A program made the position numbers and the translations under genes. A DNA stretch of 64,000 nt, from assembly GCA_965228475.1 (NCBI GenBank), contig OZ245817.1, forward strand, positions 640,001 to 704,000, given 5' to 3'. Positions 7,483 to 40,723 of the stretch are shown piece by piece. The notes below the pieces were generated by a model, which worked only from the letters and a program-made list of their open reading frames with translations, made no database searches and was not told the origin of the DNA. The stretch is from Myxococcota bacterium (GTDB lineage Bacteria > Myxococcota_A > UBA9160 > JAFDDA01). Within the stretch, counting starts at the first letter, position 1, and every line of letters begins with the position of its first letter.

Positions 7483-7838
7483 GCCCGCCGGGCCTGCTCG
7501 AGATCGCCTTCGCGCTCTGCGCGGGAACCCTGCTCCTGATGATCGCTCCGGGCTTCTGGCTCTATCGCGGCGTGCTGAAGGACCTGCGCGAGAGGCACCC
7601 CGCGGCCTGGGCGGAGCTCGGCAGCCCGACGGTCGTCTACTACTCGTCCCAGGAGGCCCGGCGCGCGCTCGGCCGCTTTCTCTCGGGCGAAGAGGCGGTG
7701 GCCGCCCTCGGCGACGCCGAGTTCTCGCGGAGCGTCCGCCGCTACCAGGGCTACCTGCGCGTCTACGGCGCGGTCTTCGTCGGGCTGTGGATCTTGTTCG
7801 CGGCGATCGTCGCGAGCCGCCTGCTCGCCTCGCACTAG
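7479..7838 (+). CDS. Small two-TM membrane protein (UspB-like)
   Basis: GTG overlaps the ankyrin stop (GTGA); two hydrophobic helices flank LRERHPAAWAELGSP. Confidence 0.7.
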   Translation: MSPPGLLEIAFALCAGTLLLMIAPGFWLYRGVLKDLRERHPAAWAELGSPTVVYYSSQEARRALGRFLSGEEAVAALGDAEFSRSVRRYQGYLRVYGAVFVGLWILFAAIVASRLLASH

Positions 7839-7874
7839 AACGCCGCTCGGGCTCGGGCTCGGGCTCGAGCTGGG

Positions 7875-9032
7875 CTAGGCCTGCTCGACGATCTCCGAGA
7901 CCACGATCGCCGTGCCGTCGCCGTCTTCGGCGGCCGTCACCGGGGACCGGCTCATGAAGCGCGCGATCTGCTCACGGCCCTCTTCGCCGAGGTCCGCGAA
8001 GATCAGCACGAGGAACGCACCGTCCTCGCGGGCGACCGTGGCGTTCAGCATCAGCGGCGGCACGCCGTCCTCGCCGTAGAGCGCGAGCTTGAGCTCCGCG
8101 CCGACCTCGAGGCTCTCGTCGCGCATCACGCGCATGCCGCCCGAGGAGAGATCCTGTCCCATCAGGATGCGGCTCGAGCCGTCGCCCTTCACCAGGACGG
8201 GCTTGGCGTAGCGTCGGCGCGGCGACTGGCGGCGGTCGTTCTCGGCGTCGCGGCCCGGCTGGGTGGTCTCGTTCGCCTCGGGCTCGGACCGCGGGCGCTC
8301 GGGCGCCGCGGTGCGCGGCGCATCCTTCCAGGGTGCGGGCCCGGTGCCGTGCTGGGCGACCAGCTTCTTCACCTCGGACATCGCACCGCGCGACAGCGCT
8401 TCGAACTGGACCGCGACCTCGTGCCCCCGGGCGGCATCCTCGACCGCCGCAGCCGCGCTGCGTGCGACCCGCCCCTTGAGCTTCACCGCTCGCCCGCCCG
8501 TGAGTTCCGCCGGCAGGGTGAGGGAGAGGCGAGCGTCCGTCTTCACGAGCTGGTCGAGCTGGAGCCGGCAGCCGGTCGCCGAGAGCTCGAGCAGCATCGC
8601 ATCGCGCGCGAACCCGAGCCGCGCCCGGACGCGCACGGGGGCGCCGATGCTCACGCGCGGAACCCGGCGCTTCTCCGGGCCGCGGTACCACGCGTGCAGG
8701 AGCAGGAGGCGCAGCGCGCCCGGGTGGACCGGGCGGCGCAGCAGGAAGTCGACGCGGGCCTGGGTCAGCCGCTTCGAGAGCGTGCGCGAGAAGCCGTCGC
8801 AGACGGCGATGTGGGAGGCGCCGTCCGCCACCCCGCGCGACGAGCGGAGTTCGAGAACGCGCTGCGGCGTCGCGACCACGACCCGCCACGGCCCGCCGTC
8901 CGAGGCCGAGCTCGGCGCGTGGGCGCGCTCCTCGTAGGGAATGCCGAGGTCGTCGAGCTGATTGCAGACGTCCGCCAGCTCCTGACGGTGCAGAACCAGA
9001 ACGCGGCCTTTTTCGGGGGAAGCTTGCGACAC
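7875..9032 (-). CDS. Tandem PilZ-domain protein
   Basis: Two RxxxR / (D/E)xSxxG pairs: EKRRVPR...ELSATG and DRRQSPR...DLSSGG; N-terminal receiver-like segment. Confidence 0.85.
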   Translation of the reverse strand: MSQASPEKGRVLVLHRQELADVCNQLDDLGIPYEERAHAPSSASDGGPWRVVVATPQRVLELRSSRGVADGASHIAVCDGFSRTLSKRLTQARVDFLLRRPVHPGALRLLLLHAWYRGPEKRRVPRVSIGAPVRVRARLGFARDAMLLELSATGCRLQLDQLVKTDARLSLTLPAELTGGRAVKLKGRVARSAAAAVEDAARGHEVAVQFEALSRGAMSEVKKLVAQHGTGPAPWKDAPRTAAPERPRSEPEANETTQPGRDAENDRRQSPRRRYAKPVLVKGDGSSRILMGQDLSSGGMRVMRDESLEVGAELKLALYGEDGVPPLMLNATVAREDGAFLVLIFADLGEEGREQIARFMSRSPVTAAEDGDGTAIVVSEIVEQA

Positions 9033-25596: not shown

Positions 25597-28080
25597 GTGG
25601 CTAAGGCCGCCGCCGCGCGTCGACGTCGAAGCGCAGCGTCCGCCGAGAGCGACGGGCCGTCGCTCGGGGTGTGGGCGGAGGTCAGTGGCGTCGGCCTGAT
25701 CCTGCTCGCCATGCTGGCGGCGCTCGCCCTCTCGACCTACCAGCCGAACGACCCGCTCTTCATGCTCGGCGAGGTCGAGAACCGCGCGGGCGTGGTCGGC
25801 GCCCACATCGCGGCGCTCCTGCAGCGTGGCTTCGGCTGGGGCTCGCTCGTCCTCGTGGCGGGGGTCGGCGTGGTCGGCGTCCGGCTGCTGCTCGGGCGCG
25901 GCGTGGCCGGCGTCGCGAGCCGGACCTGGGTGGGGACGGCGCTCGCGGTCGTGGCCCTGGCGGCCCTGCCGCCGCTGGTCGAGGTCGTGCGCCCTGGGCT
26001 CGTGCCCCACGCCGACGGCGGAAGCGTCGGCACCTGGCTCGCCGCCGGCGAGCGGACTCTCTTCAGCGTCTGGGGTGCGCTCCTCCTGAACGGCGTGCTG
26101 CTGTTCGTCGGCCTGCTCTGCCTGCTCGGCATCGCGACCGGCTCGGCCGTCGAGGTCGTGGCGAAGGGGGTGGGCTGGCTCGGGGCCGGGCTCGGCATGC
26201 TGGCCGCGAGCCTGTGGGCCGGCGTCCTGGCCACGGGCGGCGTGCTCGCCGAGGGCTGGCGCGGGTTCCGGGCAGGCGTTCAGGAGCTTGCGGCGGCCCT
26301 TCGCCGTGGCGTCCAGGCCGGGGTGGTCTGGCGGGCGCGCCGGGCCCGCAAGGCCGAGCTCGCTCCGGCCGCCGGGCCGGCGCTCGAGGACGCCGAGTTC
26401 GAGGCGGGCGCCATCGACGTCGGCGCGGACCCGGCCAAGCTCGCGGTGCCGAAGGCCAAGCCGGCGCCGGTCGGCCGCCCGAAGGCCCCCGGCGAGCTCG
26501 AGATCGTCGACCACGACGCCGAGCGCGAATCGAAGAAGAAGCCCGAGCAGGAAGCCTTCACCTTCGCCGACCGCCCGACCAACCGGCCGTGGGTGGCGCC
26601 CGAGATCGACCTCTTCCACCCGCCGCCGTCCTCGCGGCGCAAGATCGATCCCGAGAGCCTGACGATGAACGCCAGGATCCTCGAGAAGAAGCTCTCGGAC
26701 TTCGGCGTCTCCGGCAGCGTGCTCAAGGTGCACCCGGGCCCGGTCATCACGATGTACGAGTTCGAGCCGGCGTCCGGCGTGAAGGTCGGCAAGATCGTCG
26801 GGCTCTCGGACGATCTCGCCCTGGCGCTGCGCGCGCTCTCGGTGCGGATCATCGCGCCGCTGCCCGGCAAGAGCGTGGTCGGCATCGAGGTCTCGAACGC
26901 CGAGCGCGAGACCGTCTACCTGCGGGAGCTGCTCGAGAGCGAAGGCTTCCGCAACGCGGCCGGCCGGCTCACCCTGGCCCTCGGCAAGGACATCTTTGGC
27001 AACCCCGTCGAGGCGAACCTCGCCCGGATGCCGCACCTGCTCGTCGCGGGCGCCACGGGCACGGGCAAGAGCGTCTTCCTGAACTCGCTGCTCTGCTCGC
27101 TCCTCTTCCGCACTTCGCCGGACGACCTGAAGCTCCTCTTGATCGACCCGAAGCTCCTCGAACTCTCGATCTACGAAGGCATCCCCCACCTGATCGCCGA
27201 CGTGGTGACGAACCCGAAGCGGGCGGCGGGCGCGCTCGCGGGCATCGTCCAGAAGATGATCGAGCGCTACGAGATGATGGCCGCGATCGGCGTGCGCAGC
27301 ATCGACCAGTTCAACGAGCGCTCGGCCGAGGCGATCGCCGCCGGCGAGACCCACTTCAAGCTGAAGAAGAAGCCCGGCGAGGAAGAGCCGCGCGAAGCGG
27401 AGTGGACGCACCTGCCGTACATCGTGGTCGTCGTCGACGAGCTCGCGGACCTCATGGTCGTGTGCGCGCGCGACGTCGAGGAGGCGCTGCAGCGGCTCGC
27501 GCAGATGGCGCGTGCGGCCGGCATCCACCTCGTGCTCGCCACCCAGCGCCCGAGCGTCGACGTCCTCACCGGCGTGATCAAGGCGAACTTCCCGGCACGC
27601 ATCAGCTTCCAGGTCTCCTCGCGGACGGACTCGCGCACCATCCTCGACCAGAACGGCGCGGACAACCTGCTCGGCAACGGTGACATGCTGTTCCTGCCGC
27701 CGGGGACGTCGAAGCTCCAGCGCGTGCACGGCGCCTTCGTCACCGAGAAGGAGGTGACGGCGCTCGTCGAGTCCCTGCGCGAACAGGGCGCGCCCGAGTT
27801 CGACGAGACGATCATCCGCATGAAGGAAGAGAGCGAGGCCGGCACGCTCGGCGGCGGCGGCGAGGAGGGCGCGAGCGACGGCGACGAGCTCTACGACCGC
27901 GGCGTTGCCATCGTCACCGAGACGCGCAACGCCTCGATCTCGTATCTCCAGCGCCGGCTCAAGATCGGTTACAACCGCGCGGCGCGGATGATCGAGGAGA
28001 TGGAGGAGCAGGGCGTCGTCGGGCCGAACGAGGGCACGAAGGGCCGCCAGGTGCTCGTCCAGGGGATCCCGGCGGAGTGA
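25597..28080 (+). CDS. ftsK: DNA translocase FtsK
   Basis: N-terminal TM region, PHLLVAGATGTGKS, DELADLM, LATQRPSVDV, gamma domain LQRRLKIGYNRAAR. Confidence 0.96.
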   Translation: MAKAAAARRRRSAASAESDGPSLGVWAEVSGVGLILLAMLAALALSTYQPNDPLFMLGEVENRAGVVGAHIAALLQRGFGWGSLVLVAGVGVVGVRLLLGRGVAGVASRTWVGTALAVVALAALPPLVEVVRPGLVPHADGGSVGTWLAAGERTLFSVWGALLLNGVLLFVGLLCLLGIATGSAVEVVAKGVGWLGAGLGMLAASLWAGVLATGGVLAEGWRGFRAGVQELAAALRRGVQAGVVWRARRARKAELAPAAGPALEDAEFEAGAIDVGADPAKLAVPKAKPAPVGRPKAPGELEIVDHDAERESKKKPEQEAFTFADRPTNRPWVAPEIDLFHPPPSSRRKIDPESLTMNARILEKKLSDFGVSGSVLKVHPGPVITMYEFEPASGVKVGKIVGLSDDLALALRALSVRIIAPLPGKSVVGIEVSNAERETVYLRELLESEGFRNAAGRLTLALGKDIFGNPVEANLARMPHLLVAGATGTGKSVFLNSLLCSLLFRTSPDDLKLLLIDPKLLELSIYEGIPHLIADVVTNPKRAAGALAGIVQKMIERYEMMAAIGVRSIDQFNERSAEAIAAGETHFKLKKKPGEEEPREAEWTHLPYIVVVVDELADLMVVCARDVEEALQRLAQMARAAGIHLVLATQRPSVDVLTGVIKANFPARISFQVSSRTDSRTILDQNGADNLLGNGDMLFLPPGTSKLQRVHGAFVTEKEVTALVESLREQGAPEFDETIIRMKEESEAGTLGGGGEEGASDGDELYDRGVAIVTETRNASISYLQRRLKIGYNRAARMIEEMEEQGVVGPNEGTKGRQVLVQGIPAE

Positions 28081-28178
28081 ACACCGCGCGAAGGCCGAGT
28101 GAAACGCGCGAATCCCCGGCCGAAGCCGGCGGATCCCCGGGGTCGAATCCTTTCCCGGGCCCGGGCGTCCAACAGTTG

Positions 28179-29003
28179 ATGCGCAATTTCAAGACGACTC
28201 TCCTGCTGGCCGTCTTCGCCCTGGCGGTGCCGACCGTCGTGGCGGACGGCGTCGACGACGCCGGAGCCTTCGAGGTGCCGGCCGAGGCGCCCGCCGCCGA
28301 TCCGATCGTCGAAGCTCCCGCGGCCGACCTGCCGGTGGCGGAGGAACCCGAGGCGGACGCTCCCCTCGAGACGGCTGCGGCGCAGCCGCCCGCCGAGACC
28401 GACTGCGCCGCGGACACGGCCCGGCAGGTCCAGGCCTACTACGAGTCCGTGAAGGATCTGCGTGCGGCCTTCCGCCAGACGCGTCAGAGCGCCGGCGGTG
28501 CCGAGCCCGCGCGCGAAGGCACCGTGGTGCTCGCGAAGCCCGGGCGCATGCGCTGGGCCTACGAGAAGCCCGAACCGAGCCTGCTCGTGACCGACGGCCG
28601 GGTGCTCTGGATGTACGACCCGCTGCTCGAGGAGGCCCAGCGCCTGCCCGACGCCGGCGGCGTCATGTCGGGCGCCGCGGTGGAGTTCCTGATGGGGCAG
28701 GGCGACCTGCTGGCGAGCTTCGAGGTCTCCGTCGACGATTGCGGGGCGAAGCCGCGGGTCCTGCGCATGCTGCCCCGCAAGGACGCGGGCTACGAGCGGC
28801 TCGCCCTCGAGGTCGACCCGGCCGACGGCCGCGTCGAGTCGAGCACCGTGACCGATCTCTTCGGCAACCGGACGCGCGTGGTCTTCGAAGGCGTCCGGAC
28901 GAACACCGGGCCCGAGGCCGCGCTCTTCCGGTTCTCGCCTCCGGAGGGCGTCGAGGTCTTCGATCTGACGGTGCCCTCGGGCGCCCAGGGGACGGCTCCG
29001 TGA
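28179..29003 (+). CDS. lolA: Outer-membrane lipoprotein carrier LolA
   Basis: KPGRMRWAY, LLVTDGRVLWMYDP, FRFSPPEGVEV; follows ftsK; acidic N-terminal linker. Confidence 0.88.
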   Translation: MRNFKTTLLLAVFALAVPTVVADGVDDAGAFEVPAEAPAADPIVEAPAADLPVAEEPEADAPLETAAAQPPAETDCAADTARQVQAYYESVKDLRAAFRQTRQSAGGAEPAREGTVVLAKPGRMRWAYEKPEPSLLVTDGRVLWMYDPLLEEAQRLPDAGGVMSGAAVEFLMGQGDLLASFEVSVDDCGAKPRVLRMLPRKDAGYERLALEVDPADGRVESSTVTDLFGNRTRVVFEGVRTNTGPEAALFRFSPPEGVEVFDLTVPSGAQGTAP

Positions 29004-29414
29004 GCACCGGGCAGGCGATCCTGGCGGCGTGGGCCCGGCCGGGCTCCGGCTTCGCGAGGACCTCTCTCCTACGCAGAATGCCGCGTACCGGCTCCGCAAA
29101 AGCCGGGAATCTTCCCATTGAAGGCAAGCGGCTACCGAAGCTTCCCACGCCCCCGCGAATGCTGCTCCGGGCTGCCGCCCAGGGCGGCATCTCGCGCTCC
29201 GGCCACCCGTTTTCCGACGCGCCCGTCAGGCCTCCAGCGCCCTGCTGCACCCACGCCTCACGAGGCGGCACCCGGCCGGCAAGCTTCACGCAATGGCCAC
29301 GCGACCTCGCCCCGCCTCGCGGACACAACCCCAAGCGGAGTGGCGCACGGGGCCGTCACGAAGGAAGTCGAGGCCGGCCGCCCGCTTCGGCCTCGAGCTG
29401 CCTGGCCGTGATGG

Positions 29415-29449
29415 TTGACACCGTTGCGTGCTGGGGTAGCTTGCCCCAG
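29415..29449 (+). promoter_or_regulatory. Putative sigma70 promoter of the proteasome locus with overlapping inverted repeat
   Basis: Perfect TTGACA (29415-29420), 16 nt, TAGCTT (29437-29442); CTGGGG...CCCCAG (29431-29449) brackets the -10. Confidence 0.6.
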
Positions 29450-29799
29450 AGTTCCAAAACGGCCATGAATTCCGCTACTTGTGAGGGCATGACGCACGTG
29501 GAGGTGCCCCGGGGAAACGCTTCGGCGAGGACCCCCGGCGGCGGACGGCCCTCCCCGGGCAGCCCTGCGGACGCTCGGAGCTCCTTTCCCTCCCCTGGCC
29601 CCCGCGGCGCGCGCCTCGGCCGGAACGGCGACCGCTTCGTTGGTGTCATCCCAGAGGCAGAAGCCCCGCACTTGCGGGTCGTTGCCTCCGGGACGGTGCT
29701 GGCTGGCGCGAGTTCGTTGCGCGGCACGCGCTTTGCACTGTGTCCGGTGAAGAAGGTCCCCCGCAACGGCCAGCGAACTGCGAGTGAGGAGAGGGCGAC

Positions 29800-31683
29800 A
29801 TGAGCGAGCACGACTCCGAGAATGGACGCAGAGGTTTCGTCCGCGACGTGATGCGACGCATCACGCCGGCCAACCCGCGCGGAGAGGATTCTCCGGCGGA
29901 GGGCGGCGCGGAAGAAATCCAGGACGTGGAAGACGCGCGCTTCGCCGGCGCTGCGGGTTCGCGCCGCGACTACGCTCAAGAGGCCGATGACCTTCGGGAC
30001 GCCATGCGCTTCTTCGGCAGCGACTCCGCCGAATTCCGACGCCGCCTCGACCGCCTGATGGCCGAGTTCGAAGCGCTGCGACGCCGCTACGAGCTCGCGC
30101 GCGATCAGCACACGGACGCCGAGCGCCAGAACGAGAAGCTCGTCGCCACGCTGCAGGAAGCGAAGCAGCAGATCGAGCTGCTCAAGGAAGAGGTCGACAA
30201 GCTGTGCGCACCGCCGAACAGCTACGGCGTCTTCCAGCGCGCGAACAAGGACGGCACGGCCGAGATCGTCGTCGACGGCAAGGCCATGCGCGTCAACGTG
30301 CACCCGAACCTCGATCCGCACCAGATCCTGGAAGGCCAGCTCTGCGTGCTGAACGAAGCCTTCAACATCGTGGAGCCCGCGGGCTATACCCAGCGCGGCG
30401 AGATCTCGACGATCTCGGAGCTCCTGGGCGACGGCCGCGCCGTCGTGCTCGGCCACACCGACGACGAGCGCGTCGTCACCCTGGCCGACCCGCTGCGCCA
30501 CGAGAAGCTGAAGGTCGGCGACAACCTGCTCGTCGATCCGCGCACCCAGTACGCCTTCGAGAAGATGCCGAAGTCGGCCGTCGAAGAGGTGGTGCTGGAA
30601 GAAGTGCCGGACGTGACCTACGAGCGCATCGGTGGGCTCGAGGAGCAGATCGAGGTCCTGCGCGACTCCGTCGAGCTGCCCTACACGCACCCCGAGGTGT
30701 TCGCCGAGCACCAGCTCTCGCCGCCGAAGGGCATCCTGCTCTACGGGCCTCCCGGCTGCGGCAAGACGCTGATCGCCAAGGCGGTCGCCAACAGCCTCGC
30801 CAAGAGCATCGAGGCCCGCACGGGCCGTGCCACGCCGGCGTACTTCTTGAACGTGAAGGGGCCCGAGCTCCTGAACAAGTACGTGGGTGAGACCGAGCAC
30901 AAGATCCGCGAGGTCTTCAAGAAGGCGCGGGAGAAGGCGAGCGAAGAGGTCCCGGTGGTGATCTTCTTCGACGAGATGGACTCGCTGTTCCGCATGCGCG
31001 GCTCGGGCGTCTCCTCGGACATGGAGGCCACGGTGGTGGCGCAGTTCCTGTCCGAGATCGACGGCGTCGAGTCCCTGAAGAACGTGATCGTGATCGGTGC
31101 CTCGAACCGTCAGGACCTGATCGACCCGGCCGTGCTGCGGCCTGGCCGGCTCGACCTGAAGGTCAAGGTGCAGCGGCCCGACGCCGAGGCGGCGCGCTCG
31201 ATCTTCCAGAAGTACCTCACGGCGGACCTGCCCTTCCACGCGGAAGCGCAGGAACAGTACGGGAGCGACGCCCAGAAGATCGTCGATGGCGTGATCAACG
31301 AGACCGTCGATCGCATGTACAGCACCGAGGAGGAGAACAAGTTCCTCGAGGTGACGTACGCCAAGGGCGAGCGCGAGATCTTCTACTTCAAGGACTTCTC
31401 GAGCGGCGCGATGATCGAGAACATCGTGGCCCGCGCGAAGAAGATGGCCGTGAAGCGGATGATCGATCACGAGGAACGCGGCATCAAAGCCGAGGACCTG
31501 ATCGAGGCCGTCAACGCGGAGTTCAAGGAGAACGAAGATCTCCCGAACACCACGAACCCGGACGACTGGGCCCGCATCTCGGGCAAGAAGGGCGAGCGCA
31601 TCATCAACGTCCGCACGATGATGACCGGCATCAGCCGCAAGGAGCGCTCGATCGAGAACGTGAGTTCGGGTCAGTATCTCTAG
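29800..31683 (+). CDS. arc: Proteasome-associated AAA ATPase (ARC/Mpa)
   Basis: Coiled coil then PPNSYG, LEEVPDVTY..IGGL, Walker A GPPGCGKT, NVKGPELLNKYVGETE, ENEDLPNTTNPDDWARISGKKGERI, C-terminal GQYL. Confidence 0.96.
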   Translation: MSEHDSENGRRGFVRDVMRRITPANPRGEDSPAEGGAEEIQDVEDARFAGAAGSRRDYAQEADDLRDAMRFFGSDSAEFRRRLDRLMAEFEALRRRYELARDQHTDAERQNEKLVATLQEAKQQIELLKEEVDKLCAPPNSYGVFQRANKDGTAEIVVDGKAMRVNVHPNLDPHQILEGQLCVLNEAFNIVEPAGYTQRGEISTISELLGDGRAVVLGHTDDERVVTLADPLRHEKLKVGDNLLVDPRTQYAFEKMPKSAVEEVVLEEVPDVTYERIGGLEEQIEVLRDSVELPYTHPEVFAEHQLSPPKGILLYGPPGCGKTLIAKAVANSLAKSIEARTGRATPAYFLNVKGPELLNKYVGETEHKIREVFKKAREKASEEVPVVIFFDEMDSLFRMRGSGVSSDMEATVVAQFLSEIDGVESLKNVIVIGASNRQDLIDPAVLRPGRLDLKVKVQRPDAEAARSIFQKYLTADLPFHAEAQEQYGSDAQKIVDGVINETVDRMYSTEEENKFLEVTYAKGEREIFYFKDFSSGAMIENIVARAKKMAVKRMIDHEERGIKAEDLIEAVNAEFKENEDLPNTTNPDDWARISGKKGERIINVRTMMTGISRKERSIENVSSGQYL

Positions 31684-31697
31684 CACGGCGTTTCGAA

Positions 31698-31736
31698 CGC
31701 ACCGGAAGACCGTGATGCACACGATCTTCCGGTGCG
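31698..31736 (+). other. Intergenic stem-loop between arc and dop
   Basis: CGCACCGGAAGA / TCTTCCGGTGCG, 12-bp perfect stem, no U-tract. Confidence 0.6.
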
Positions 31737-31837
31737 GCGCCGGCCGCCTCGGATGCGGCCTTGGGAAAAGGCACTATCCTCAAGGTCCGCGTTTCTCGAC
31801 GGTTTTCGGGCGACTGGCGCGGACGCACGGGGGTTGA

Positions 31838-33325
31838 ATGGCCATTCCGAAGGTCATGGGTACGGAGATCGAGTTCGGCATCACGGTCCAGAACGACCGC
31901 GATTTCGACCCCATCTCGAGCTGCGTCCTACTCGTCAACGCCTACCGCGAAGAGCACGACGCGAAGATCCTCTGGGACTACGACCAGGAGAACCCGCTCG
32001 CGGACGCGCGCGGCTTCCAGGTCGAGGGCGAGAAGTACACGCCCAACCAGCAGGAGAACATCGCGCGCAACAAGACCCTGGTGAACGGGGCGCGCTACTA
32101 CGTCGACCACGCCCACCCCGAGTACTCCTGCCCGGAGGTGACGAACCCGCGCGACCTCGTCGTGCACGAGAAGGCCGGCGACATCGTCGTCGAGCGCAGC
32201 CGCAAGGAAGCGAACGCCCTGCTGCCCGAGGGCACGCAGATGCTGCTCCACAAGAACAACAGCGACGGCAAGGGCAACAGCTACGGCTCGCACGAGAACT
32301 ACCTGATGGACCGTCGCACGTCCTTCAAGCAGATCGTCGAGCACCTGATGCCGTTCTTCGTGACGCGCCAGGTCTACACGGGAGCCGGCAAGGTCGGCAG
32401 CGAGAACCGCGCCCACCCCTGCGACTACCAGCTCGCCCAGCGCTCGGACTTCTTCGAGACCGAGGTGGCCCTCGACACGATGGTCAAGCGACCCATCATC
32501 AACACGCGCGACGAGCCCCACGCGGACCGCGAGAAGTACCGCCGCCTGCACGTGATCGTGGGCGACGCGAACATGCTCGAACCGACGATCTTCCTGCGCC
32601 AGGGCGCGACGGCGCTCGTGCTCTCGATGATCGAGGACGGCAAGGTGAAGCCCTCCTTCGCGCTGCGGGATCCGGTGCGCGCGATCAAGGACGTCTCCCA
32701 CGACGTGGACCTCGGCCACGAGGTCCAGCTCGAGAACGGCAAGAAGTTCACGGCCATCCAGCTCCAGCGCGAATACTGCGACCTCGCGACGAGCTACGTC
32801 GCCCAGGCGAGCGACCTGCACCCGAGCTACAAGGACGTCGTCGAGATGTGGCAGCGCGTGCTCGAGACCCTCGAGCGCGACCCGATGGAGCTGGCCGACG
32901 AGATCGATTGGGTGGCGAAGAAGGCCCTCATCGAGAACTTCATGGAGCGCAAGGGCCTCGACTGGAGCTCGCCGCGCGTGCGGCTCCTCGACCTGCAGTT
33001 CCACGACCTGCGCCGGGAGAAGGGCCTCTACTACCTCCTCGAGCGTCAGGGCCGCGTCAAGCGCATCACCACGGACGAGGAGATCGAGGCCGCCGTCACC
33101 GAGCCGCCCGAGGACACGCGCGCCTACTTCCGGGGCCAGTGCCTGAAGCGCTACTCGGGCGAGGTGTTCGGCGTGAACTGGGACTCGCTTTCCTTCGGGA
33201 TCGGCGACGAGCCCATCAAGCGCATCCTGATGGCGGAACCGCTGAAGGGAACCAAGGCTCACGTCGATGAGCTGTTGAACCAGTCGAAGGACGCGGCCTC
33301 GCTGGTGAAGGCACTGCGCGCCTAG
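31838..33325 (+). CDS. dop: Pup deamidase/depupylase Dop
   Basis: GTEIEFG, Dop-loop WDYDQENPLADARGF, NGARYYVDHAHPEYS, KNNSDGKGNSYGSHENY, NTRDEPHAD, RRLHVIVGD, PPEDTRAYFRG. Confidence 0.93.
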   Translation: MAIPKVMGTEIEFGITVQNDRDFDPISSCVLLVNAYREEHDAKILWDYDQENPLADARGFQVEGEKYTPNQQENIARNKTLVNGARYYVDHAHPEYSCPEVTNPRDLVVHEKAGDIVVERSRKEANALLPEGTQMLLHKNNSDGKGNSYGSHENYLMDRRTSFKQIVEHLMPFFVTRQVYTGAGKVGSENRAHPCDYQLAQRSDFFETEVALDTMVKRPIINTRDEPHADREKYRRLHVIVGDANMLEPTIFLRQGATALVLSMIEDGKVKPSFALRDPVRAIKDVSHDVDLGHEVQLENGKKFTAIQLQREYCDLATSYVAQASDLHPSYKDVVEMWQRVLETLERDPMELADEIDWVAKKALIENFMERKGLDWSSPRVRLLDLQFHDLRREKGLYYLLERQGRVKRITTDEEIEAAVTEPPEDTRAYFRGQCLKRYSGEVFGVNWDSLSFGIGDEPIKRILMAEPLKGTKAHVDELLNQSKDAASLVKALRA

Positions 33326-33382
33326 CGGCAGGACGACGCGAGCGAACGGATTTCGAGCCCCGGCTCGGGAAGAGAGAGAACG

Positions 33383-33583
33383 ATGGCACAAGAGCAAAAG
33401 CACAAGGGTGGCGGTGGTTCCGGCGACGATTCGTCGGGCAAGGACTCCGGCGGTCAGAAACTCGCCAAGAAGGGCGAGGAGCTGAAGGAAGAGATGGACG
33501 CGCTCGTCGACGAGATCGACGAGGTCCTGGAAGAAAACGCCGAGGAGTTCGTGAAGAACTACGTCCAGCGCGGCGGCGAATAG
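33383..33583 (+). CDS. pup: Prokaryotic ubiquitin-like protein Pup
   Basis: 66 aa; MAQEQK start, disordered Gly/Ser N-terminus, DEIDEVLEENAEEFVKNYVQRGGE C-terminus. Confidence 0.95.
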   Translation: MAQEQKHKGGGGSGDDSSGKDSGGQKLAKKGEELKEEMDALVDEIDEVLEENAEEFVKNYVQRGGE

Positions 33584-33654
33584 ACAGCCAAGACGGGGTT
33601 GGCCGGTCTTGGCCGGCGCCATTCAGGTCTTGTAGAACGGATTCGGGGGGGATC

Positions 33655-34452
33655 GTGTTCTTTCGCAACGGCTACTCTGGTTTCCGGAGCGGCTACCAAG
33701 GTTCCAGTTTCTTCGATCTGGTCAACAGTGAAGCGCCGGCCCTCGCGCCGGACTTCGCGACGCTCGCGCGCGGGCTCCAGCTCGAGGACGTGCCCCACGG
33801 CACCACCGTCTGCTCCTTCAAGTTCGAAGGCGGCGTCGTCATGGCCGGCGACCGGCTCGCCACGGCCGGCATGCGCGTCGCTTCCCGCGAGGTGCAGAAG
33901 GTCTTCCCGACCGACACGCATTCGATGATCGCCATCGCCGGCGCCGCGGGCCCGGCCATCGAAATGGCGCGCCTGCTCTCGATCGAGCTCGAGCACTACG
34001 AGAAGATCGAAGGCGAGCGCCTGGAGCTCGACGGCAAGGCCAACAAGCTCTCCCAGATGATCCGCCAGAACCTGCCGGCCGCGATGCAGGGCCTCGCGGT
34101 CGTGCCGCTGTTCGCGGGCTACGACCTGCGGCGCCGCGTCGGGCGCCTGTGGAACTTCGACATCACGGGCGGCCGCTACGAAGAGGGTGAGTTCGAGTCC
34201 TCGGGCTCGGGCGGCCTCTACGCCGCGGAGTACATCAAGAAGGAGTGGCGCCAGGGCATGGACGCGCCCGCGGCCCTCGACCTCGCCGTTGCCGCGATCA
34301 GCGCGGCCGCCGACGAGGACCGGGCCACCGGCGGCGTCGATCTCGGCCGCGGGATCTTCCCGATCGTGAACGTCTGCACCGAAGCCGGCATCGTGCGCGC
34401 GACCGACGAAGAGGTCCGCGCCAGCTACGACCGCGTTCGAGGAGCCAACTAG
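33655..34452 (+). CDS. prcB: 20S proteasome beta subunit
   Basis: Propeptide then PHG/TT catalytic Thr, AGDR, ELEHYEKIEG, GKANKL, GSG, D.ATGG. Confidence 0.95.
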   Translation: MFFRNGYSGFRSGYQGSSFFDLVNSEAPALAPDFATLARGLQLEDVPHGTTVCSFKFEGGVVMAGDRLATAGMRVASREVQKVFPTDTHSMIAIAGAAGPAIEMARLLSIELEHYEKIEGERLELDGKANKLSQMIRQNLPAAMQGLAVVPLFAGYDLRRRVGRLWNFDITGGRYEEGEFESSGSGGLYAAEYIKKEWRQGMDAPAALDLAVAAISAAADEDRATGGVDLGRGIFPIVNVCTEAGIVRATDEEVRASYDRVRGAN

Positions 34453-34454
34453 CG

Positions 34455-35153
34455 ATGTCGATGCCCTTCTACGTTTCGCCCGAACAGCTCATGCAGGACA
34501 AGGCCGAGTACGCCCGCAAGGGCATCTCGCGCGGCAAGTCCATCGTGACGCTCGAGTACGAAGGCGGGATCCTTCTGGTGGCCGAGAACCCCTCGACGAG
34601 CCTCTCGAAGATCGGCGAGATCTACGACCGCGTGGCCTTCGCCGGCGTCGGCAAGTTCAGCGAGTTCGATCAGCTCCGGAAGGTCGGCGTGCGCTACGCG
34701 GACACCCGCGGCTACGCCTACAGCCGGGACGACGTGCGCGGCAAGGCCCTGGCGAACGCCTACTCCCAGGTGATCGGCGAGACCTTCACGCGCGAGATGA
34801 AGCCCCTCGAGGTGGAGATCGTGGTCGCCGAGTGCGGAGACCCGCGCTTCGCCGGCCACGAGGAGGACGCCCTCTACCGCGTGCGCTTCGACGGCAGCAT
34901 CACGGACGAGCAGAACTTCTGCGTGATCGGCGGCAACGCCGAGCCGCTCGAGAGCCACCTGCAGTCCCGGTACGAGAAGGGCGCCTCGCTCGCCGACGCC
35001 CTGCGGCTCGGCCGCGACGCCCTCGGCCGCGCCGAGAACGGCGATCCGGACCTCGGCGCACCGAACCTCGAGGTCTGCGTGCTCGAGCGCCAGCGCGAGG
35101 GCCGCAAGTTCCGGCGCCTCGAGAGCAGCGAGATCTCCACGCTCCTCGGCTAG
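34455..35153 (+). CDS. prcA: 20S proteasome alpha subunit
   Basis: MSMPFYVSPEQLMQDKAEYARKGISRGKS, KIGEIYDRVAFAGVGK, KPLEVEI, LEVCVLER. Confidence 0.95.
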   Translation: MSMPFYVSPEQLMQDKAEYARKGISRGKSIVTLEYEGGILLVAENPSTSLSKIGEIYDRVAFAGVGKFSEFDQLRKVGVRYADTRGYAYSRDDVRGKALANAYSQVIGETFTREMKPLEVEIVVAECGDPRFAGHEEDALYRVRFDGSITDEQNFCVIGGNAEPLESHLQSRYEKGASLADALRLGRDALGRAENGDPDLGAPNLEVCVLERQREGRKFRRLESSEISTLLG

Positions 35154-35187
35154 GGAGGGAAGCCCGGGCCCCCGCGGGGCGCTCGGC

Positions 35188-35215
35188 AAAAGGTCTGCGC
35201 CCGGGCTGCCGATAC
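35188..35215 (+). promoter_or_regulatory. Sigma28-like promoter upstream of pafA
   Basis: AAAAG, 15 nt, GCCGATAC; same architecture recurs at seven other genes in the window. Confidence 0.55.
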
Positions 35216-35257
35216 CGGAAGGGCTATGGTGCCCTTCCAGGGCCGGGTGGGAGTCTC

Positions 35258-36664
35258 GTGCAGAAGCGCATCTTCGGGGTCGAGACGGAATACGGGATCA
35301 TCTTCACGCCGGAAGGGCGGAAGACGCTGCCCGTCGAAAAGGCGATCCGCTTCCTCTTCGAGAAGCTGATCACCACCGAGCATTTCCTCAACGTCTTCCT
35401 CGAGAACGGCGCCCGCTTCTACCAGGACACGGGCTGCCACCCCGAGTACGCGACGCCCGAGTGCGCCTCGCCGCGCCAGCTCATCGTCTACGACAAGGCC
35501 GGCGAGCGGATCCTCGAAGATCTCCAGGACTACGCCGAGGAGAAGATCCGCGAAGAGCGCATCGCGGGCCGCCTCAGCATCTTCAAGAACAACACCGACT
35601 TCGTCGGGAACAGCTACGGCTGCCACGAGAACTACCTCGTCGATCGCGACGTGGACTTCTACTACCTGGCCGAGCAGCTGATCCCGTTCCTCGTGACGCG
35701 CCAGATCTACAGCGGCGCCGGCAAGGTCTTCCAGACCCAGGACGGCATCCACTACTGCATCAGCCAGCGCGCGCAGCACATCTACCAGAAGATCTCGGGC
35801 ACCACGACGAACGACCGCTCGATCATCAACACGCGCGACGAGCCCCACGCGGACCGCGAGAAGTACCGCCGGCTGCACGTGATCGTGGGCGACTCGAACA
35901 TGAGCGAGTACACGAACTTCCTGAAGGTCGCGGCCTGCACCGTCGTGCTCCAGATGATCGAGGACAACTACATCCAGAACGACTTCACCCTGCGCAACCC
36001 GGTGAAGGCGATCAAGGACATCTCCTACGACACGACGTGCAAGCGCAAGCTCCGCCTCGACAACGGGCGCGAGTACTCGCCGATCGAGATCCAGCGTGAG
36101 TACTGCGAGCTCGCGCAGAAGTACATCGAGCACTACCCGGTCTCCGACGAGCTGAAGGAAGGCGTGCGCATGTGGCAGCACGCCCTCGACGCCCTCGACA
36201 CCGACCCGAACCAGCTCGCCGACAAGATCGACTGGGTGATCAAGCGGCGCCTGATCGAGAGCTACCTCGACAAGCGCGGCACGAGCTGGAACGACCCGCG
36301 GGTCTTCATGCTCGACCTCCAGTACCACGACATCCGGCTGAACCGCGGGCTCTACTACCTGCTCGAGCGCCAGGGTGCCGTCGAGCGCGTGCTCACCGAC
36401 GAAGAGGTGATCAAGGCGAAGACCGAGCCGCCCCCGGACACGCGGGCGAAGATGCGCGGCGAGTTCATCAAGCTGGCCCGGCAGAACGCCATCCAGTACG
36501 ACCTCGACTGGTCGAACATCCGCCTCGGCAACCTCCTGAACGTCCGGGTGATCTGCAACAACCCCTTCGAGACGGACACCGAGAAGGTCGCGGAGCTCGT
36601 GCGGACGATCCAGAAGACGAATCTCCGCAAGACCTCCCTCTCCAAGCTCGTCATTCAGAGTTAG
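35258..36664 (+). CDS. pafA: Pup-protein ligase PafA
   Basis: KRIFGVETEYG, NVFLENGARFYQDTGCHPEYATPEC, GNSYGCHENY, NTRDEPHAD, GDSNMSE, LDLQYHDI, PPPDTRAKMRG; no Dop-loop. Confidence 0.94.
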   Translation: MQKRIFGVETEYGIIFTPEGRKTLPVEKAIRFLFEKLITTEHFLNVFLENGARFYQDTGCHPEYATPECASPRQLIVYDKAGERILEDLQDYAEEKIREERIAGRLSIFKNNTDFVGNSYGCHENYLVDRDVDFYYLAEQLIPFLVTRQIYSGAGKVFQTQDGIHYCISQRAQHIYQKISGTTTNDRSIINTRDEPHADREKYRRLHVIVGDSNMSEYTNFLKVAACTVVLQMIEDNYIQNDFTLRNPVKAIKDISYDTTCKRKLRLDNGREYSPIEIQREYCELAQKYIEHYPVSDELKEGVRMWQHALDALDTDPNQLADKIDWVIKRRLIESYLDKRGTSWNDPRVFMLDLQYHDIRLNRGLYYLLERQGAVERVLTDEEVIKAKTEPPPDTRAKMRGEFIKLARQNAIQYDLDWSNIRLGNLLNVRVICNNPFETDTEKVAELVRTIQKTNLRKTSLSKLVIQS

Positions 36665-36708
36665 CTCGGACCTCTCCGGCAGGGACTCCTCGGCGCTATG
36701 GTCCGCCC

Positions 36709-38994
36709 GTGGTGGCGGAGGAGCGATCGGAGCCAGCCAGGGACCCCACGGTAGGTCGGTGGGCCGTGGCCGCCTTCGTCTTCCTCACGGCCCTGATCGT
36801 CCGCGCCGTGCGGCATCCGCTGGTGTTCACGCCGTCCGGTGTGGACTTCCCGTTTCTGGGAGATCTCTACTACCACGTCCGCCGGATCTGGTTCACGGCA
36901 GCGAACTTCCCCGAGATCCTCTCTCACGATCCCTACGTGAGCTTCCCGGACGGGGCTCAGATCGTCTGGCCCGGCGCCTTCGATGGGTTGATCGGGGCGT
37001 TGGCCTGGCTTCTGGTCGGGGGCGAGAGTCAGGCACGAGTCGAGGAAGTTGCGGTGTGGGTGCCACCCGTCCTGGGAGCCGTCACCGCCGCGGCCGCTTC
37101 GTGGATCGCACAGCCCCGATACGGACGCCCGGCAGCGCTTCTCGCCGGAGGAATCTTCGCCTTTCTCCCGGCGAGCTTCGTCTTCTCGCAGCTTGGCCAG
37201 TTGGATCACCACGTCGGGGTGGCCTTGCTTGCCGCGGGCCTGCTCGGAGCCGGACTCGCCGTGATGGAAAAGCCCGGCCGGTCTACGGCGGTGGCCCTGG
37301 GTGTGATGATGGCCGGGATCATCGGGCTGTGGCCCGGTGCGTTGCTCCACGTCCTGGTCGTGGAGGTCGGGCTGGCGGTCTGGACATTCGGTGCCGCCGA
37401 CGGGCGCTCGGCTGCTTCGAGGGCGGGTGTCCTCTCGGCGGCTCACGCCCTGGCGGCGCTGCTCCTCGCCCCCTTCTGCATTGGCCGTGTTTGGGAGGCT
37501 TTCGGCGCGTGGACGCCGTGGGCGCTCTCGAACTTCCAGCCCGTTTGGTTGGGAGCGGTCGCGGCGGCGCTCGCTGTCGCCGGGGCGGCTTTCCGTCGCA
37601 CCTCGGCCGGTCGAAGCCCGGTGGCTCGCATGACCTTCGCTGCGGCGCTGGCGGTCGTTGCCTCGTCCGTCTCGCTCGTCCTGATCGCTCCCCTGCAGGA
37701 TTCCCTCTCCGAGGCTTCGGGTTGGTTCGGACAGACGGAGGAGTTCCAGAGCCACGTCGCGGAGCTTCGACCTCTGCTCTACCCGAAGGGCCGGTTCGAA
37801 CTCCGCTCGGTGGTCACGGACTTCGGCCTGGCGGGCCTCTTCTTTCCGTTGGCCTGGCTCGCGCTGTTCGTAACCGGTTGGCGACACCGCCGATCTTCCG
37901 ACGGGCTCCTCCTCTGGTTCGCTGCAAGTTTCATGATTCTCACCTTGAACCAGCGTCGCTTCGAGAACACGCTCGCCGTACCCTACGCCCTGGTGTGGGG
38001 AGCGGTGCTCGGCGACCTTGCGCCCCGCGCGTGGCGCTCCCTGGCGGGCCATCGGCTCGCGAGAGGGCTCGTGGCCGCAGGGATGGTGCTGGGGCTCCTG
38101 CTCTCGGCCGGGTCGGTGGTGAACTACTACGTGCCGTTCCTCGGCCAGGCGCAGATGGCATCGGCGAGCTTCCCGCCACCGAGGAGCCCCGTCCGAACGC
38201 AGCAGCGCCTCTTCGAGCGTGCCGGGCGCTTTCTGGCCGCGAACTCTCCACCGACGCGGGGCTATCTCGACCCGAGCGTTCGGCCGGAGTACGGAGTGCT
38301 CTGCAACTGGGGCGTTGGCCACCTGCTTCGCTATCGCGCCGAGCGGCCAATGGTTCAAGACAACTTCGGCGTCTACGGAGGGCGCCGCACATTCGACCTC
38401 GCGTGGGCGTACTTCGCTGCGGAGGAAGAGAGCGAGGCCGTCGCCATCGCCCGTTCTCTCCGGGCTCGCTACGTCGTCGCCGATCCTCTCGGCGCCGGGT
38501 CCCGGAAGCCCTACGCGCCCCGGAGCCTGGCTCGCCGGCTGGCCCAGTTCTACGGGAGCGAGCACGACCTTCCCGGAGGTCGCGGGCGTGTCCCGGCCCT
38601 CGCGCACCACCGGCTGTTGTTCCACACGAGCGGGGACGACCGCGCCGAACTCGTCACGCAGCGCCGCGACCTCGCCGTTGCCGTCTTCGAGATCGTGGCC
38701 GGCGCTCGCATCGACGGTCTTGCCCGGCCGGCTTCGAACGTCGAGGTGAGCCTCCCGATCCGAACCGGCGAGGGCCGCCGCCATCGCTACCGGGTCACGA
38801 CCGTGGCCGACGGAAAGGGGCGTTGGTCCGTGACGGTTCCGTATCCGACGGACGTCTCATGGAGTCCGGACCTCGCGGGCGGAGCGAGCTACCGCGCACG
38901 TTCCGCGGAGCGTGAGGCTGCGTTCGAGGTGCCCGAAGCCGCGGTTCGCGGCGGTGACACGGTTCCCGGTCCGAACCTGGGCGCCGGCGAATGA
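36709..38994 (+). CDS. STT3/AglB-like oligosaccharyltransferase family membrane protein
   Basis: DLYYHVRRI, DPYVSFPDG, DHH, VAELRPL, RRF, many TM helices, EYGVLCNWGVGH at the WWDYG position, C-terminal beta domain. Confidence 0.8.
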   Translation: MVAEERSEPARDPTVGRWAVAAFVFLTALIVRAVRHPLVFTPSGVDFPFLGDLYYHVRRIWFTAANFPEILSHDPYVSFPDGAQIVWPGAFDGLIGALAWLLVGGESQARVEEVAVWVPPVLGAVTAAAASWIAQPRYGRPAALLAGGIFAFLPASFVFSQLGQLDHHVGVALLAAGLLGAGLAVMEKPGRSTAVALGVMMAGIIGLWPGALLHVLVVEVGLAVWTFGAADGRSAASRAGVLSAAHALAALLLAPFCIGRVWEAFGAWTPWALSNFQPVWLGAVAAALAVAGAAFRRTSAGRSPVARMTFAAALAVVASSVSLVLIAPLQDSLSEASGWFGQTEEFQSHVAELRPLLYPKGRFELRSVVTDFGLAGLFFPLAWLALFVTGWRHRRSSDGLLLWFAASFMILTLNQRRFENTLAVPYALVWGAVLGDLAPRAWRSLAGHRLARGLVAAGMVLGLLLSAGSVVNYYVPFLGQAQMASASFPPPRSPVRTQQRLFERAGRFLAANSPPTRGYLDPSVRPEYGVLCNWGVGHLLRYRAERPMVQDNFGVYGGRRTFDLAWAYFAAEEESEAVAIARSLRARYVVADPLGAGSRKPYAPRSLARRLAQFYGSEHDLPGGRGRVPALAHHRLLFHTSGDDRAELVTQRRDLAVAVFEIVAGARIDGLARPASNVEVSLPIRTGEGRRHRYRVTTVADGKGRWSVTVPYPTDVSWSPDLAGGASYRARSAEREAAFEVPEAAVRGGDTVPGPNLGAGE

Positions 38995-39063
38995 CGGCTC
39001 GCTCTCCACTCATTCGGAGCTAGACTCTCTCTCCATCGTCGATCCCCTTTGCACGGAGTTCCC

Positions 39064-39492
39064 ATGAGCGAGAGCACCCCCGAGACGAACGAATCCACCC
39101 GCAAGGCCCATCTCCAGTCCGTCCCCGCCAAGGAGTCGAGCGCGCCGGCGCCGGCCCAGAGCGGCCCCGTGCGGCAGTCCGGCGGCCACTTCACCGGCCT
39201 GCTGGCCCTGCTGCTGGCCGTGGCGGTGTTCGCCCTGCTGGCCCAGTTCTCCGCGAACCAGGGTCTCGAGGCCGAGAACGCCGAGCTGAAGACCCAGCTC
39301 GCCTCGACCCAGGCCGAGCTTGCGGCCAGCCAGGAGAACATGAGCACCGCGCGCGACGCGCTCGGCGGCCTGAAGGACGTGCTGGCCCGCGTCGAGGCGC
39401 TCCTGCTGCCGCCCGTCGCCGCCGAGGGCGGAGCCGAAGCGGCCCCCGAGGCTGTGAGCGCGGACACGCCCGAGGCGCTCCCGGCCGAGTAG
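39064..39492 (+). CDS. Small single-TM coiled-coil protein
   Basis: GGAG RBS, one TM helix followed by a heptad-rich helix. Confidence 0.7.
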   Translation: MSESTPETNESTRKAHLQSVPAKESSAPAPAQSGPVRQSGGHFTGLLALLLAVAVFALLAQFSANQGLEAENAELKTQLASTQAELAASQENMSTARDALGGLKDVLARVEALLLPPVAAEGGAEAAPEAVSADTPEALPAE

Positions 39493-39685
39493 CGCCGCCA
39501 AGAGCGAGGAATCGCGGGCCGGTCCGACGGGCCGGCCCGCTGACCCCGCGTCCGCTCCCACCCACACGCCCTTCACCCCAGGCCGATCCACTTTCGGCCA
39601 TGCGTGTGCTTTTTCCGCTCAGGGGCCTCCCGGGTAACGCCGATGAGACTCGGTAGAACACCTCCCCCCCAACGGAGGTCCTCCC

Positions 39686-40723
39686 GTGGTCTTTGGTCCC
39701 ATCGCCGCATTCCTGTCCGACGATCTCGCAATCGATCTCGGAACCGCCAACACGCTCGTCTACTCCCGGGGCAAGGGCATGATCTGCTCGGAGCCGTCGG
39801 TGGTGGCGGTGGCGCACGACGGACGCAGCCGCGTCGAACGCGTGCTGGCCGTCGGCCACGAAGCGAAGGAGATGGTCGGCCGCACCCCGGGCGGCGTCCG
39901 CGCGATTCGCCCGATCAAGGACGGCGTGATCGCCGACTTCGAGATCGCCGAGGCGATGCTCCGCTACTTCATCCAGCGCGCGCACAACCGCAGCAAGCTG
40001 GTCCGCCCGCGCATCGTCATCTGCGTGCCGCCCTGCATCACCAGCGTCGAGAAGCGCGCGGTGCGGGAATCGGCGCTCTCGGCCGGTGCGCGCGAAGTCT
40101 TCCTGATCGAGGAGCCCATGGCCGCGGCCATCGGTGCGGGCCTCGACGTCACCGCGCCGACGGGCAACATGGTCGTCGACATCGGCGGTGGCACGACCGA
40201 CGTGGCCGTGATCTCGCTCTCGGGCATCGTCACCTCGCGCAGCGTCCGCTGCGGCGGCGACAAGATGGACGAGGCGATCATCAACTACGTCAAGCGCAAG
40301 TACAACATGCTGATCGGCGAGCGCACCGCCGAGCGCGTGAAGATGACCGTCGGCACGGCTTCGACCCACACGAAGACGAGCACGATGGAGATCAAGGGCC
40401 GCGACCTCGTGGCCGGAATTCCGAAGACGGTGATCACGAGCAGCGACGAGATCCGTGAAGCGCTGCTCGAGCCGATCAACGCGATCGTCGAGACGGTCCA
40501 CCTGACGCTCGAGCGCACGCCGCCCGAGCTCGCGGCGGACATCGTCGACCGGGGCATCATGCTCGTCGGCGGCGGTTCGATGCTGATGGACCTGGATCAC
40601 CTGCTCCGCGAGGAGACGAAGCTGCCGATCCTGCGCAGCGAGGATCCGTTCACGGCGGTGGCGACGGGGGCCAGCACGGCGCTCGAGAACATGTCGCTGC
40701 TGCGGGACGTCTGCTTGGACTGA
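39686..40723 (+). CDS. mreB: Rod shape-determining actin homolog MreB (no adjacent mreCD)
   Basis: IDLGTANT, RPIKDGVIADF, IEEPMAAAIGAG, VDIGGGTT, TPPELAADI. Confidence 0.93.
   Translation: MVFGPIAAFLSDDLAIDLGTANTLVYSRGKGMICSEPSVVAVAHDGRSRVERVLAVGHEAKEMVGRTPGGVRAIRPIKDGVIADFEIAEAMLRYFIQRAHNRSKLVRPRIVICVPPCITSVEKRAVRESALSAGAREVFLIEEPMAAAIGAGLDVTAPTGNMVVDIGGGTTDVAVISLSGIVTSRSVRCGGDKMDEAIINYVKRKYNMLIGERTAERVKMTVGTASTHTKTSTMEIKGRDLVAGIPKTVITSSDEIREALLEPINAIVETVHLTLERTPPELAADIVDRGIMLVGGGSMLMDLDHLLREETKLPILRSEDPFTAVATGASTALENMSLLRDVCLD

Follow-up and report, generated by a model that had tools for sequence, protein, structure and literature searches.

A Pup-proteasome locus as a core trait of a diderm class of Myxococcota

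How does a Gram-negative bacterium come to carry a full set of Pup-proteasome genes, and is the set in working order? The question is raised by contig OZ245817.1 of a Myxococcota bacterium (assembly GCA_965228475.1), of which we analysed positions 640,001 to 704,000 of the forward strand; this whole stretch of 64,000 nucleotides is called the window, and its own numbering is used below. The genes arc, dop, pup, prcB, prcA and pafA lie between positions 29,800 and 36,664. The Pup-proteasome has been placed in Actinobacteria and Nitrospirae and elsewhere only sporadically (PMC7947786, PMC3511204). We conclude, with a probability of roughly 0.85, that the locus encodes a working Pup-proteasome system, which either entered at the stem of the host class or survived in that class alone, and which its members have inherited since as a core locus. 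The host class is presumably UBA9160, to judge by isolate names among the related loci (UBA6930, SZUA-336 and STL-MYXA1) and their place in GTDB. The genome is a single 5.0 Mb contig, 96% complete, with one copy each of Dop and PafA.

Gene families were called by NCBIfam equivalog cut-offs and domains by Pfam. As a preliminary description made from the DNA letters had stated, the six genes are co-oriented in the order arc-dop-pup-prcB-prcA-pafA. All are intact and each scores above the cut-off of its own NCBIfam model:

29800..31683, + strand, arc/mpa, proteasomal AAA+ ATPase (TIGR03689, 746 bits, cut-off 505; Pfam OB_N, OB_C and AAA domains; C-terminal GQYL)
31838..33325, + strand, dop, deamidase/depupylase with Dop-loop (TIGR03688, 586 bits, cut-off 492)
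33383..33583, + strand, pup, 66 amino acids, ending in YVQRGGE (TIGR03687, 57.5 bits, cut-off 41.45; PF05639 above cut-off)
33655..34452, + strand, prcB, 20S beta subunit with propeptide and PHG/TT processing site (TIGR03690, 279.5 bits, cut-off 192)
34455..35153, + strand, prcA, 20S alpha subunit (TIGR03691, 312 bits, cut-off 139)
35258..36664, + strand, pafA, Pup ligase of a diderm subfamily, 468 amino acids (TIGR03686, 555.5 bits, cut-off 551.3)

The start of PafA is 35258 and not the upstream GTG of a 610-codon open reading frame (ORF).

The motifs singled out as diagnostic in that description (ARC GQYL, Dop-loop, PrcB PHG/TT and Pup tail) were all found in the translations. We compared them over the 80 best related loci, with smaller numbers where a gene or region had to be complete. 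ARC has the OB domains and the docking tail that Pup-proteasome ATPases require; GxYx is the docking motif at the C-terminus of proteasomal ATPases (PMC6466877), and the tail reads GQYL in 61 of 64 loci and GQYV in the other three. The best PDB sequence match of Dop is the Dop structure 4b0r (E 2.7e-153). Dop carries the Dop-loop and the active-site His; PafA carries the catalytic Asp and lacks the Dop-loop. Gly59 of PafA stands at the place of a His in Dop. In PrcB the mature Thr1 is residue 50 and Lys33 is residue 82, as counted by hand in the translation, and the G-TT site is kept in 69 of 73 loci. Every one of 71 Pup sequences ends in either GGE (48) or GGQ (23). The two endings switch inside the class and differ even between the window and its nearest locus, L021.

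The pairing of PafA with Pup and of ARC with the 20S core is textbook knowledge. The genes, their residues and the promoter sites were read directly in the DNA; that the proteins are expressed, form complexes and are active we infer from these. PafA most probably joins the terminal glutamate of Pup to lysines of target proteins. Dop would mature the GGQ form of Pup and recycle Pup, and ARC, by way of its GQYL tail, would pass tagged proteins on to the PrcAB core. The genome retains ClpP, four Lon matches and one HslV-like gene, and the Pup-proteasome system would add to these proteases and not replace them.

Is the locus a stray acquisition or part of the host lineage? In a phylum sample of 300 genomes (57 of the host class, 243 of other classes), PafA was matched at E 1e-30 in 55/57 genomes of the class and in 0/243 others; the Pup family was matched above cut-off in 53/57 and 0/243, respectively. 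The sporadic occurrence assumed in the preliminary description for diderm groups does not hold here: the system is a core trait of the whole class, near-universal and strongly conserved. In a set of 40 relatives, PafA was found in 39 (the genome without it is 73% complete) at 84-96% identity, compared with 75-87% for RecA in the same genomes. The 80 related loci are titled mainly Myxococcota or Deltaproteobacteria; some bear Spirochaetales or Geobacter labels, with the same gene order and PafA identity of 81-91%. These titles, along with lolA and YfiO in the window, agree with the proposed host, a diderm Myxococcota lineage.

Synteny in relatives, which had been put forward as a check, was found throughout. 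The full six-gene order is present in 66/80 loci and lolA adjoins arc in 58/80, the remaining loci mostly ending before lolA; mreB lies inside the fetched DNA in 65/80. The other 14 loci hold a 3' part in correct order, and 13 of them stop at a contig edge. For 34 loci holding all eight test genes we compared the operon with the host genes MreB, FtsK and MltG. Host and operon distances were correlated (rho 0.78), and 13 of 14 strong host splits reappeared in the operon tree. In the five large genes the GC content at third codon positions (GC3) lies in the range 0.91-0.97, near that of ftsK (0.955) and mreB (0.93), so that codon usage is host-like as had been said. The shared splits, conserved gene order and GC3 together bear out an old, ameliorated system.

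A chimera in the assembly, a mobile cassette and a recent transfer from an actinobacterium were considered as rival origins. In their favour, the gene order is that of Actinobacteria, and the GC of the system genes (0.60-0.69) is slightly under that of the genome (0.705). However, identity to Nonomuraea is only 48-57% over the five large genes, and the locus keeps its place among host genes throughout the class. In runs X2 and X4, which come from two studies, one of them possibly the source sample, contigs without differences span the junctions lolA-arc and pafA-mreB. The plasmid and phage collections returned 2 and 1 records, respectively, none close. A chimera or recent cassette is excluded because of the class-wide distribution, the synteny, the shared tree splits, the bridging contigs and the host-like GC3. 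The 55/57 versus 0/243 distribution, the synteny, the bridging contigs and the shared splits likewise refute a recent transfer, which we consider extremely improbable.

In detail, the ligase departs from the actinobacterial one. An alignment to C. glutamicum 4b0t without gaps, combined with the published offsets, gives it the same residue numbers as M. smegmatis PafA. Residues E9, E11, D57, E63, H123, R171, T183, T184 and R193, which comprise catalytic and nucleotide-binding residues as well as T183, T184 and R193, are identical in 78/78 full-length loci. R130, R193 and R204, on which substrate recognition by M. smegmatis PafA depends (PMC10465538), are invariant in a 60-row PafA alignment. 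The best structural match of the predicted PafA is the PafA-Pup structure 4bjr, with a template modelling (TM) score of 0.90-0.91. PafA-defining positions were taken as the 22 used in Table 1 of PMC7947786 to tell PafA from Dop. The protein has the PafA residue at 8/22 of them, compared with 21 and 19 in the Nonomuraea and Ilumatobacteraceae controls, and the substitutions are fixed in 78/78 loci. The ligase is a distinct form, with its catalytic core kept and 14/22 defining positions broken.

Two further regions set this PafA apart. The alpha-loop, reported as mediating target interaction (PMC7947786), is identical in 79/80 loci, with one conservative change in the other, and is unlike the actinobacterial alpha-loop. 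A C-terminal tail past the actinobacterial end is kept in 79/80 loci despite low model confidence (predicted local distance difference test under 50 at 457-468). PafA is more conserved than MreB in 61/61 loci (median 88% versus 81%). A specialist ligase could account for the remodelled loop, the fixed tail and this conservation: PafA would act on few essential targets or depend on a partner, and pupylation would be a switch-like signal under sigma-54 and not bulk recycling. Such a ligase is compatible with a working system and differs from it in substrate range. However, the general substrate-binding arginines are retained, strong conservation equally fits an enzyme with many substrates, and no partner gene is conserved beside pafA across the related loci. 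We regard a specialist ligase as rather unlikely, though in functional terms it is the chief rival.

Several observations weigh against a working system inherited within the class. No activity, protein or transcript of the organism has been observed. Two RNA runs, X17 and X18, contained 8% and 5% of the words; all that they yielded were contigs from relatives, which are short, mostly less than 95% alike, extend over ftsK and mreB too and cannot show transcription. PafA exceeds its family cut-off by only 4 bits. At the 14/22 discriminating positions that differ from actinobacterial PafA, one residue is Dop-like (Pro67), though the Nonomuraea control also has Pro there. The structure search parts PafA from Dop narrowly (TM 0.90-0.91 versus 0.86-0.88). 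One of the 14 strong host splits conflicts with the operon tree. Finally, locus L090 has a detached pafA (6927-8330) with 6.9 kb of upstream DNA without prcA, the sole detached case among the 80 loci.

The lack of direct expression evidence for the organism would also suit a silent or decaying relic. We consider this very unlikely, since the PafA and Dop matches of relatives have no premature stops, conservation is very strong and the promoters are conserved. Frameshift-like splits occur in L028, L030, L044 and L093; they mostly affect host genes also and look like sequencing error.

Where, then, did the system come from? Outside the class, the nearest named PafA proteins belong to Nitrospinota, Entotheonellia, Candidatus Entotheonella and Candidatus Moduliflexus, with one labelled Limnocylindrales, at 61-65% identity; identity is 48% to Ilumatobacteraceae and 50% to Nonomuraea. 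Searches for named Nitrospirota relatives returned none, and the best ESM Atlas cluster is mostly Myxococcota. In a 22-row PafA tree rooted with Dop, the class clusters with the Nitrospinota, Entotheonella and Moduliflexus proteins in a single clade (100/99) that excludes the actinobacterial rows, with the branching among the diderm groups not resolved. Rows P0092 and P0097, which have a PafA start and a Dop end, had distorted earlier trees and were excluded from this tree and from the approximately unbiased (AU) tests. The AU tests (13 rows) rejected three groupings with Actinobacteria (p 0.0017, 5e-93 and 0.0003), for groups named after the earlier trees had been seen, on a data set that had just two named rows from Actinobacteria, none of them deep-branching, and no named Nitrospirota.

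The label "actinobacterial-type" in the preliminary description thus stands for gene content and order and fails for the ligase, which has 8/22 defining positions and groups with the diderm lineages. A direct actinobacterial donor is not supported on present sequences, because the ligase falls with those of Nitrospinota, Tectomicrobia and Moduliflexus in a diderm subfamily of its own; the diderm clade as a whole may still have an ancient origin in Actinobacteria. Deep vertical descent is a possible but tentative alternative to old transfers between these lineages. It would put the system in the common ancestor of the class, Nitrospinota, Tectomicrobia and Moduliflexota, with loss from other Myxococcota. 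The single clade outside the sampled Actinobacteria, the AU rejection of trees that join actinobacterial rows to either the class or the diderm clade, and the alpha-loop type and basic, hydrophobic C-terminal extension common to these lineages speak for it. Yet it requires loss from all other sampled classes (0/243), the tree does not resolve the diderm groups, the AU tests have the narrow sampling given above, and a Tectomicrobia-labelled homologue, P0173, lies outside the clade. The Entotheonella-type PafA (P0110, P0379, P0382 and relatives) is also very strongly conserved, at 90-100% over 120 database clusters.

A bolder reading joins these strands. The class, Nitrospinota, Entotheonella and Moduliflexota would form a second major branch of pupylation, sister to the actinobacterial one and not derived from it, whose ligase is limited to few essential targets by a different docking loop and fixed tail and which in the class is switched on through a sigma-54 enhancer. 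We hold this to be doubtful. If true, it would mean that Gram-negative bacteria have a ubiquitin-like proteolysis triggered by signals, and where bacterial pupylation arose would again be in question.

How might the core locus be regulated? Four elements were recognised in the lolA-arc gap:

29214..29228, + strand, conserved dyad GAC-N-GTC, candidate activator-binding site (28/51 upstream regions, shuffle mean 1.7)
29255..29271, + strand, second conserved element about 27 bp past the dyad, candidate activator-binding site (27/51 regions)
29415..29442, + strand, predicted sigma-70-type promoter TTGACA-N16-TAnnnT (51/57 regions)
29722..29737, + strand, predicted sigma-54 (-24/-12) promoter site, 62 bp upstream of the start of arc

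The sigma-54 site was scored out of 12 against a -24/-12 consensus. A score of at least 10/12 was reached in 56/59 lolA-arc regions, compared with 107/2950 shuffles and 0/59 reverse strands, mostly 40-160 bases before arc. By sequence the GG/GC pair at -24/-12 spacing, the conserved position and an RpoN are all present; the genome encodes one RpoN and about 21 strong matches to sigma-54 activators. The sigma-70-type site lies about 250-850 bases upstream of the sigma-54 site, with a spacer of 16 or 17 (16 in 48/51), and its exact pattern occurs three times in the whole genome, both strands counted. Dyad and second element occur together and in order in 17/51 regions (shuffle mean 0.02), for patterns chosen after the regions had been inspected. 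In a co-regulation scan, ten places in the genome had both upstream elements, and only the arc locus had a sigma-54 site of at least 10/12 within 900 bp.

An A/T-rich block at about 29445-29490, right after the sigma-70 box, is conserved in most loci. An integration host factor site after the sigma-70 promoter (at most 2 mismatches) was found in 24/51 regions and in 406/1530 shuffles. No conserved small ORF was found in the gap; the best peptide is common to seven other loci and overlaps the promoter. An Rfam scan of 28000-40000 gave one chance match, below the gathering score.

The genes around the locus are as follows:

25597..28080, + strand, ftsK, DNA translocase (Pfam FtsK domains; 5' of lolA in related loci too)
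28077..29003, + strand, lolA, lipoprotein chaperone and diderm marker (TIGR00547 above cut-off)
36736..38994, + strand, STT3/AglB-like oligosaccharyltransferase (family matches; GC3 0.815; matched in 0/80 related loci)
39686..40723, + strand, mreB (TIGR00904)

The placement between ftsK-lolA and mreB near bamD, given in the preliminary description, is right for the flanks and needs amending in two respects: the STT3/AglB-like gene and a 147-amino-acid ORF intervene between pafA and mreB, and the YfiO (BamD-type) gene lies some 22 kb further on. The STT3/AglB-like gene is a local insertion outside the system. In L021, L025 and L043 the prcA-pafA gap is 1.0-1.9 kb, which suggests inserted genes.

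Which accessory genes accompany the system? As had been noted, no WYL gene follows pafA. A pafB-pafC pair was not found in the genome, which has two single, unpaired HTH-WYL genes elsewhere. The PAC2 family has been proposed as a proteasome assembly chaperone (PMC2588565). A PAC2-family gene (G000:C1:3411951-3412607; in L107 at about 1438-2370, - strand) is unlinked to the operon and tracks the class, with matches above cut-off in 28/37 class genomes and 0/163 others; it has no sigma-54 site of at least 10/12 (best 8/12). Bpa/PafE was matched in 0/5 genomes, a search in which no control genome matched either and which did not include the intended positive control.

Some class members have a second, highly divergent cassette (L121, 4946-9457, - strand; L122, 963-7397, + strand). 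It holds a JAB-domain gene (PF14464 in L122), an ARC-like ATPase, a Dop-like gene, a small ORF ending in GGQ or GGE and a PafA-like gene. The small ORF has no Pfam Pup match, and no proteasome subunits lie within the fetched DNA. L120 (2477-5768, + strand) has only the Dop-like, small-ORF and PafA-like part. L123 (4007-5935, + strand) and L124 (4168-5943, - strand) encode single PafA/Dop homologues of 590-640 amino acids with an insert of about 130 residues, which resemble the Plesiocystis type of PMC2588565 in layout. L104 (4759-9377), an unverified record filed as phage, has arc-dop-pup-pafA without proteasome genes and is probably bacterial DNA.

What does the locus add to what is in print? 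Pupylation genes in diderms, including 'Proteobacteria' and Nitrospinae, have been reported already (PMC2588565, PMC7947786), and the surprise of a diderm occurrence is lowered accordingly. A term search of PMC12288473 gave no passage on diderm hosts, and the main text of preprint 10.64898/2026.07.10.737566, which names class UBA9160 Vahlivitia, contains neither 'proteasom' nor 'pupyl'. In literature that covers few subscription papers, no description of a Pup-proteasome locus in this lineage was found, in keeping with the earlier view that the system is uncharacterised there. The trait is near-universal and strongly conserved in a class of soil, sediment and marine diderms, and therefore points to an important role beyond ClpP, Lon and HslV. 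The ligase is a natural variant in which 14/22 supposedly PafA-defining positions are broken and the catalytic core is kept, and it therefore allows a direct test of what determines ligase versus hydrolase activity and the choice of substrate. For pupylation-based proximity labelling it may prove useful as an alternative enzyme.

How, finally, does the system compare with known ones? With the actinobacterial system (Mpa, Dop, Pup, PrcB, PrcA and PafA of M. tuberculosis and M. smegmatis, C. glutamicum PafA 4b0t/4bjr and A. cellulolyticus Dop 4b0r) it shares the six genes, their order, catalytic residues, Dop-loop, GxYx tail, GGE/GGQ tag and fold. It differs in its diderm host, its sigma-54 site, the lack of a pafBC pair and a compact operon where Nonomuraea has multi-kb gaps. 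Its PafA, with 8/22 defining positions and an extra tail, falls outside the actinobacterial subfamily both by the 22-position test and by branching, with thin actinobacterial sampling. In the UBact system of Gram-negative bacteria, as here, a diderm has genes for a small acidic tag together with those for a ligase, an ATPase and the proteasome. The tag of the window passes both Pup models above cut-off, and in a Pfam scan to E 1 Pup was the only model to match it above cut-off (whether the library holds a UBact model was left unchecked).

Among other diderms, Leptospirillum and Nitrospirota are reported to have a complete pupylation system with conserved gene order, likely derived from Acidimicrobiales (PMC3511204, PMC7947786); for the present class the AU test rejects such a link, in a comparison without a named Nitrospirota sequence. 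Sporadic pupylation homologues are reported in NC10, Nitrospinae and Proteobacteria, with transfer from Actinobacteria proposed (PMC7947786). The Pup ligase homologue of the deltaproteobacterium Plesiocystis, found also in Rhodopirellula, is reported with a four-helix membrane insert and, like the Pup of Plesiocystis, without proteasome genes (PMC2588565), whereas the 468-amino-acid PafA of the window shows no insert in its alignment to 4b0t and has prcBA beside its gene. Closest are the proteins that databases annotate as PafA in Nitrospinota, Candidatus Entotheonella (Tectomicrobia) and Candidatus Moduliflexus, which are alike in clade, identity, alpha-loop type and a basic, hydrophobic C-terminal extension. 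They have the PafA residue at 7-9/22 defining positions, near the 8 of the window, and their tail sequence varies by lineage. Set beside these systems, the locus is a real variant of a known system and not a new machine, and the advance lies in its range, evolution and regulation.

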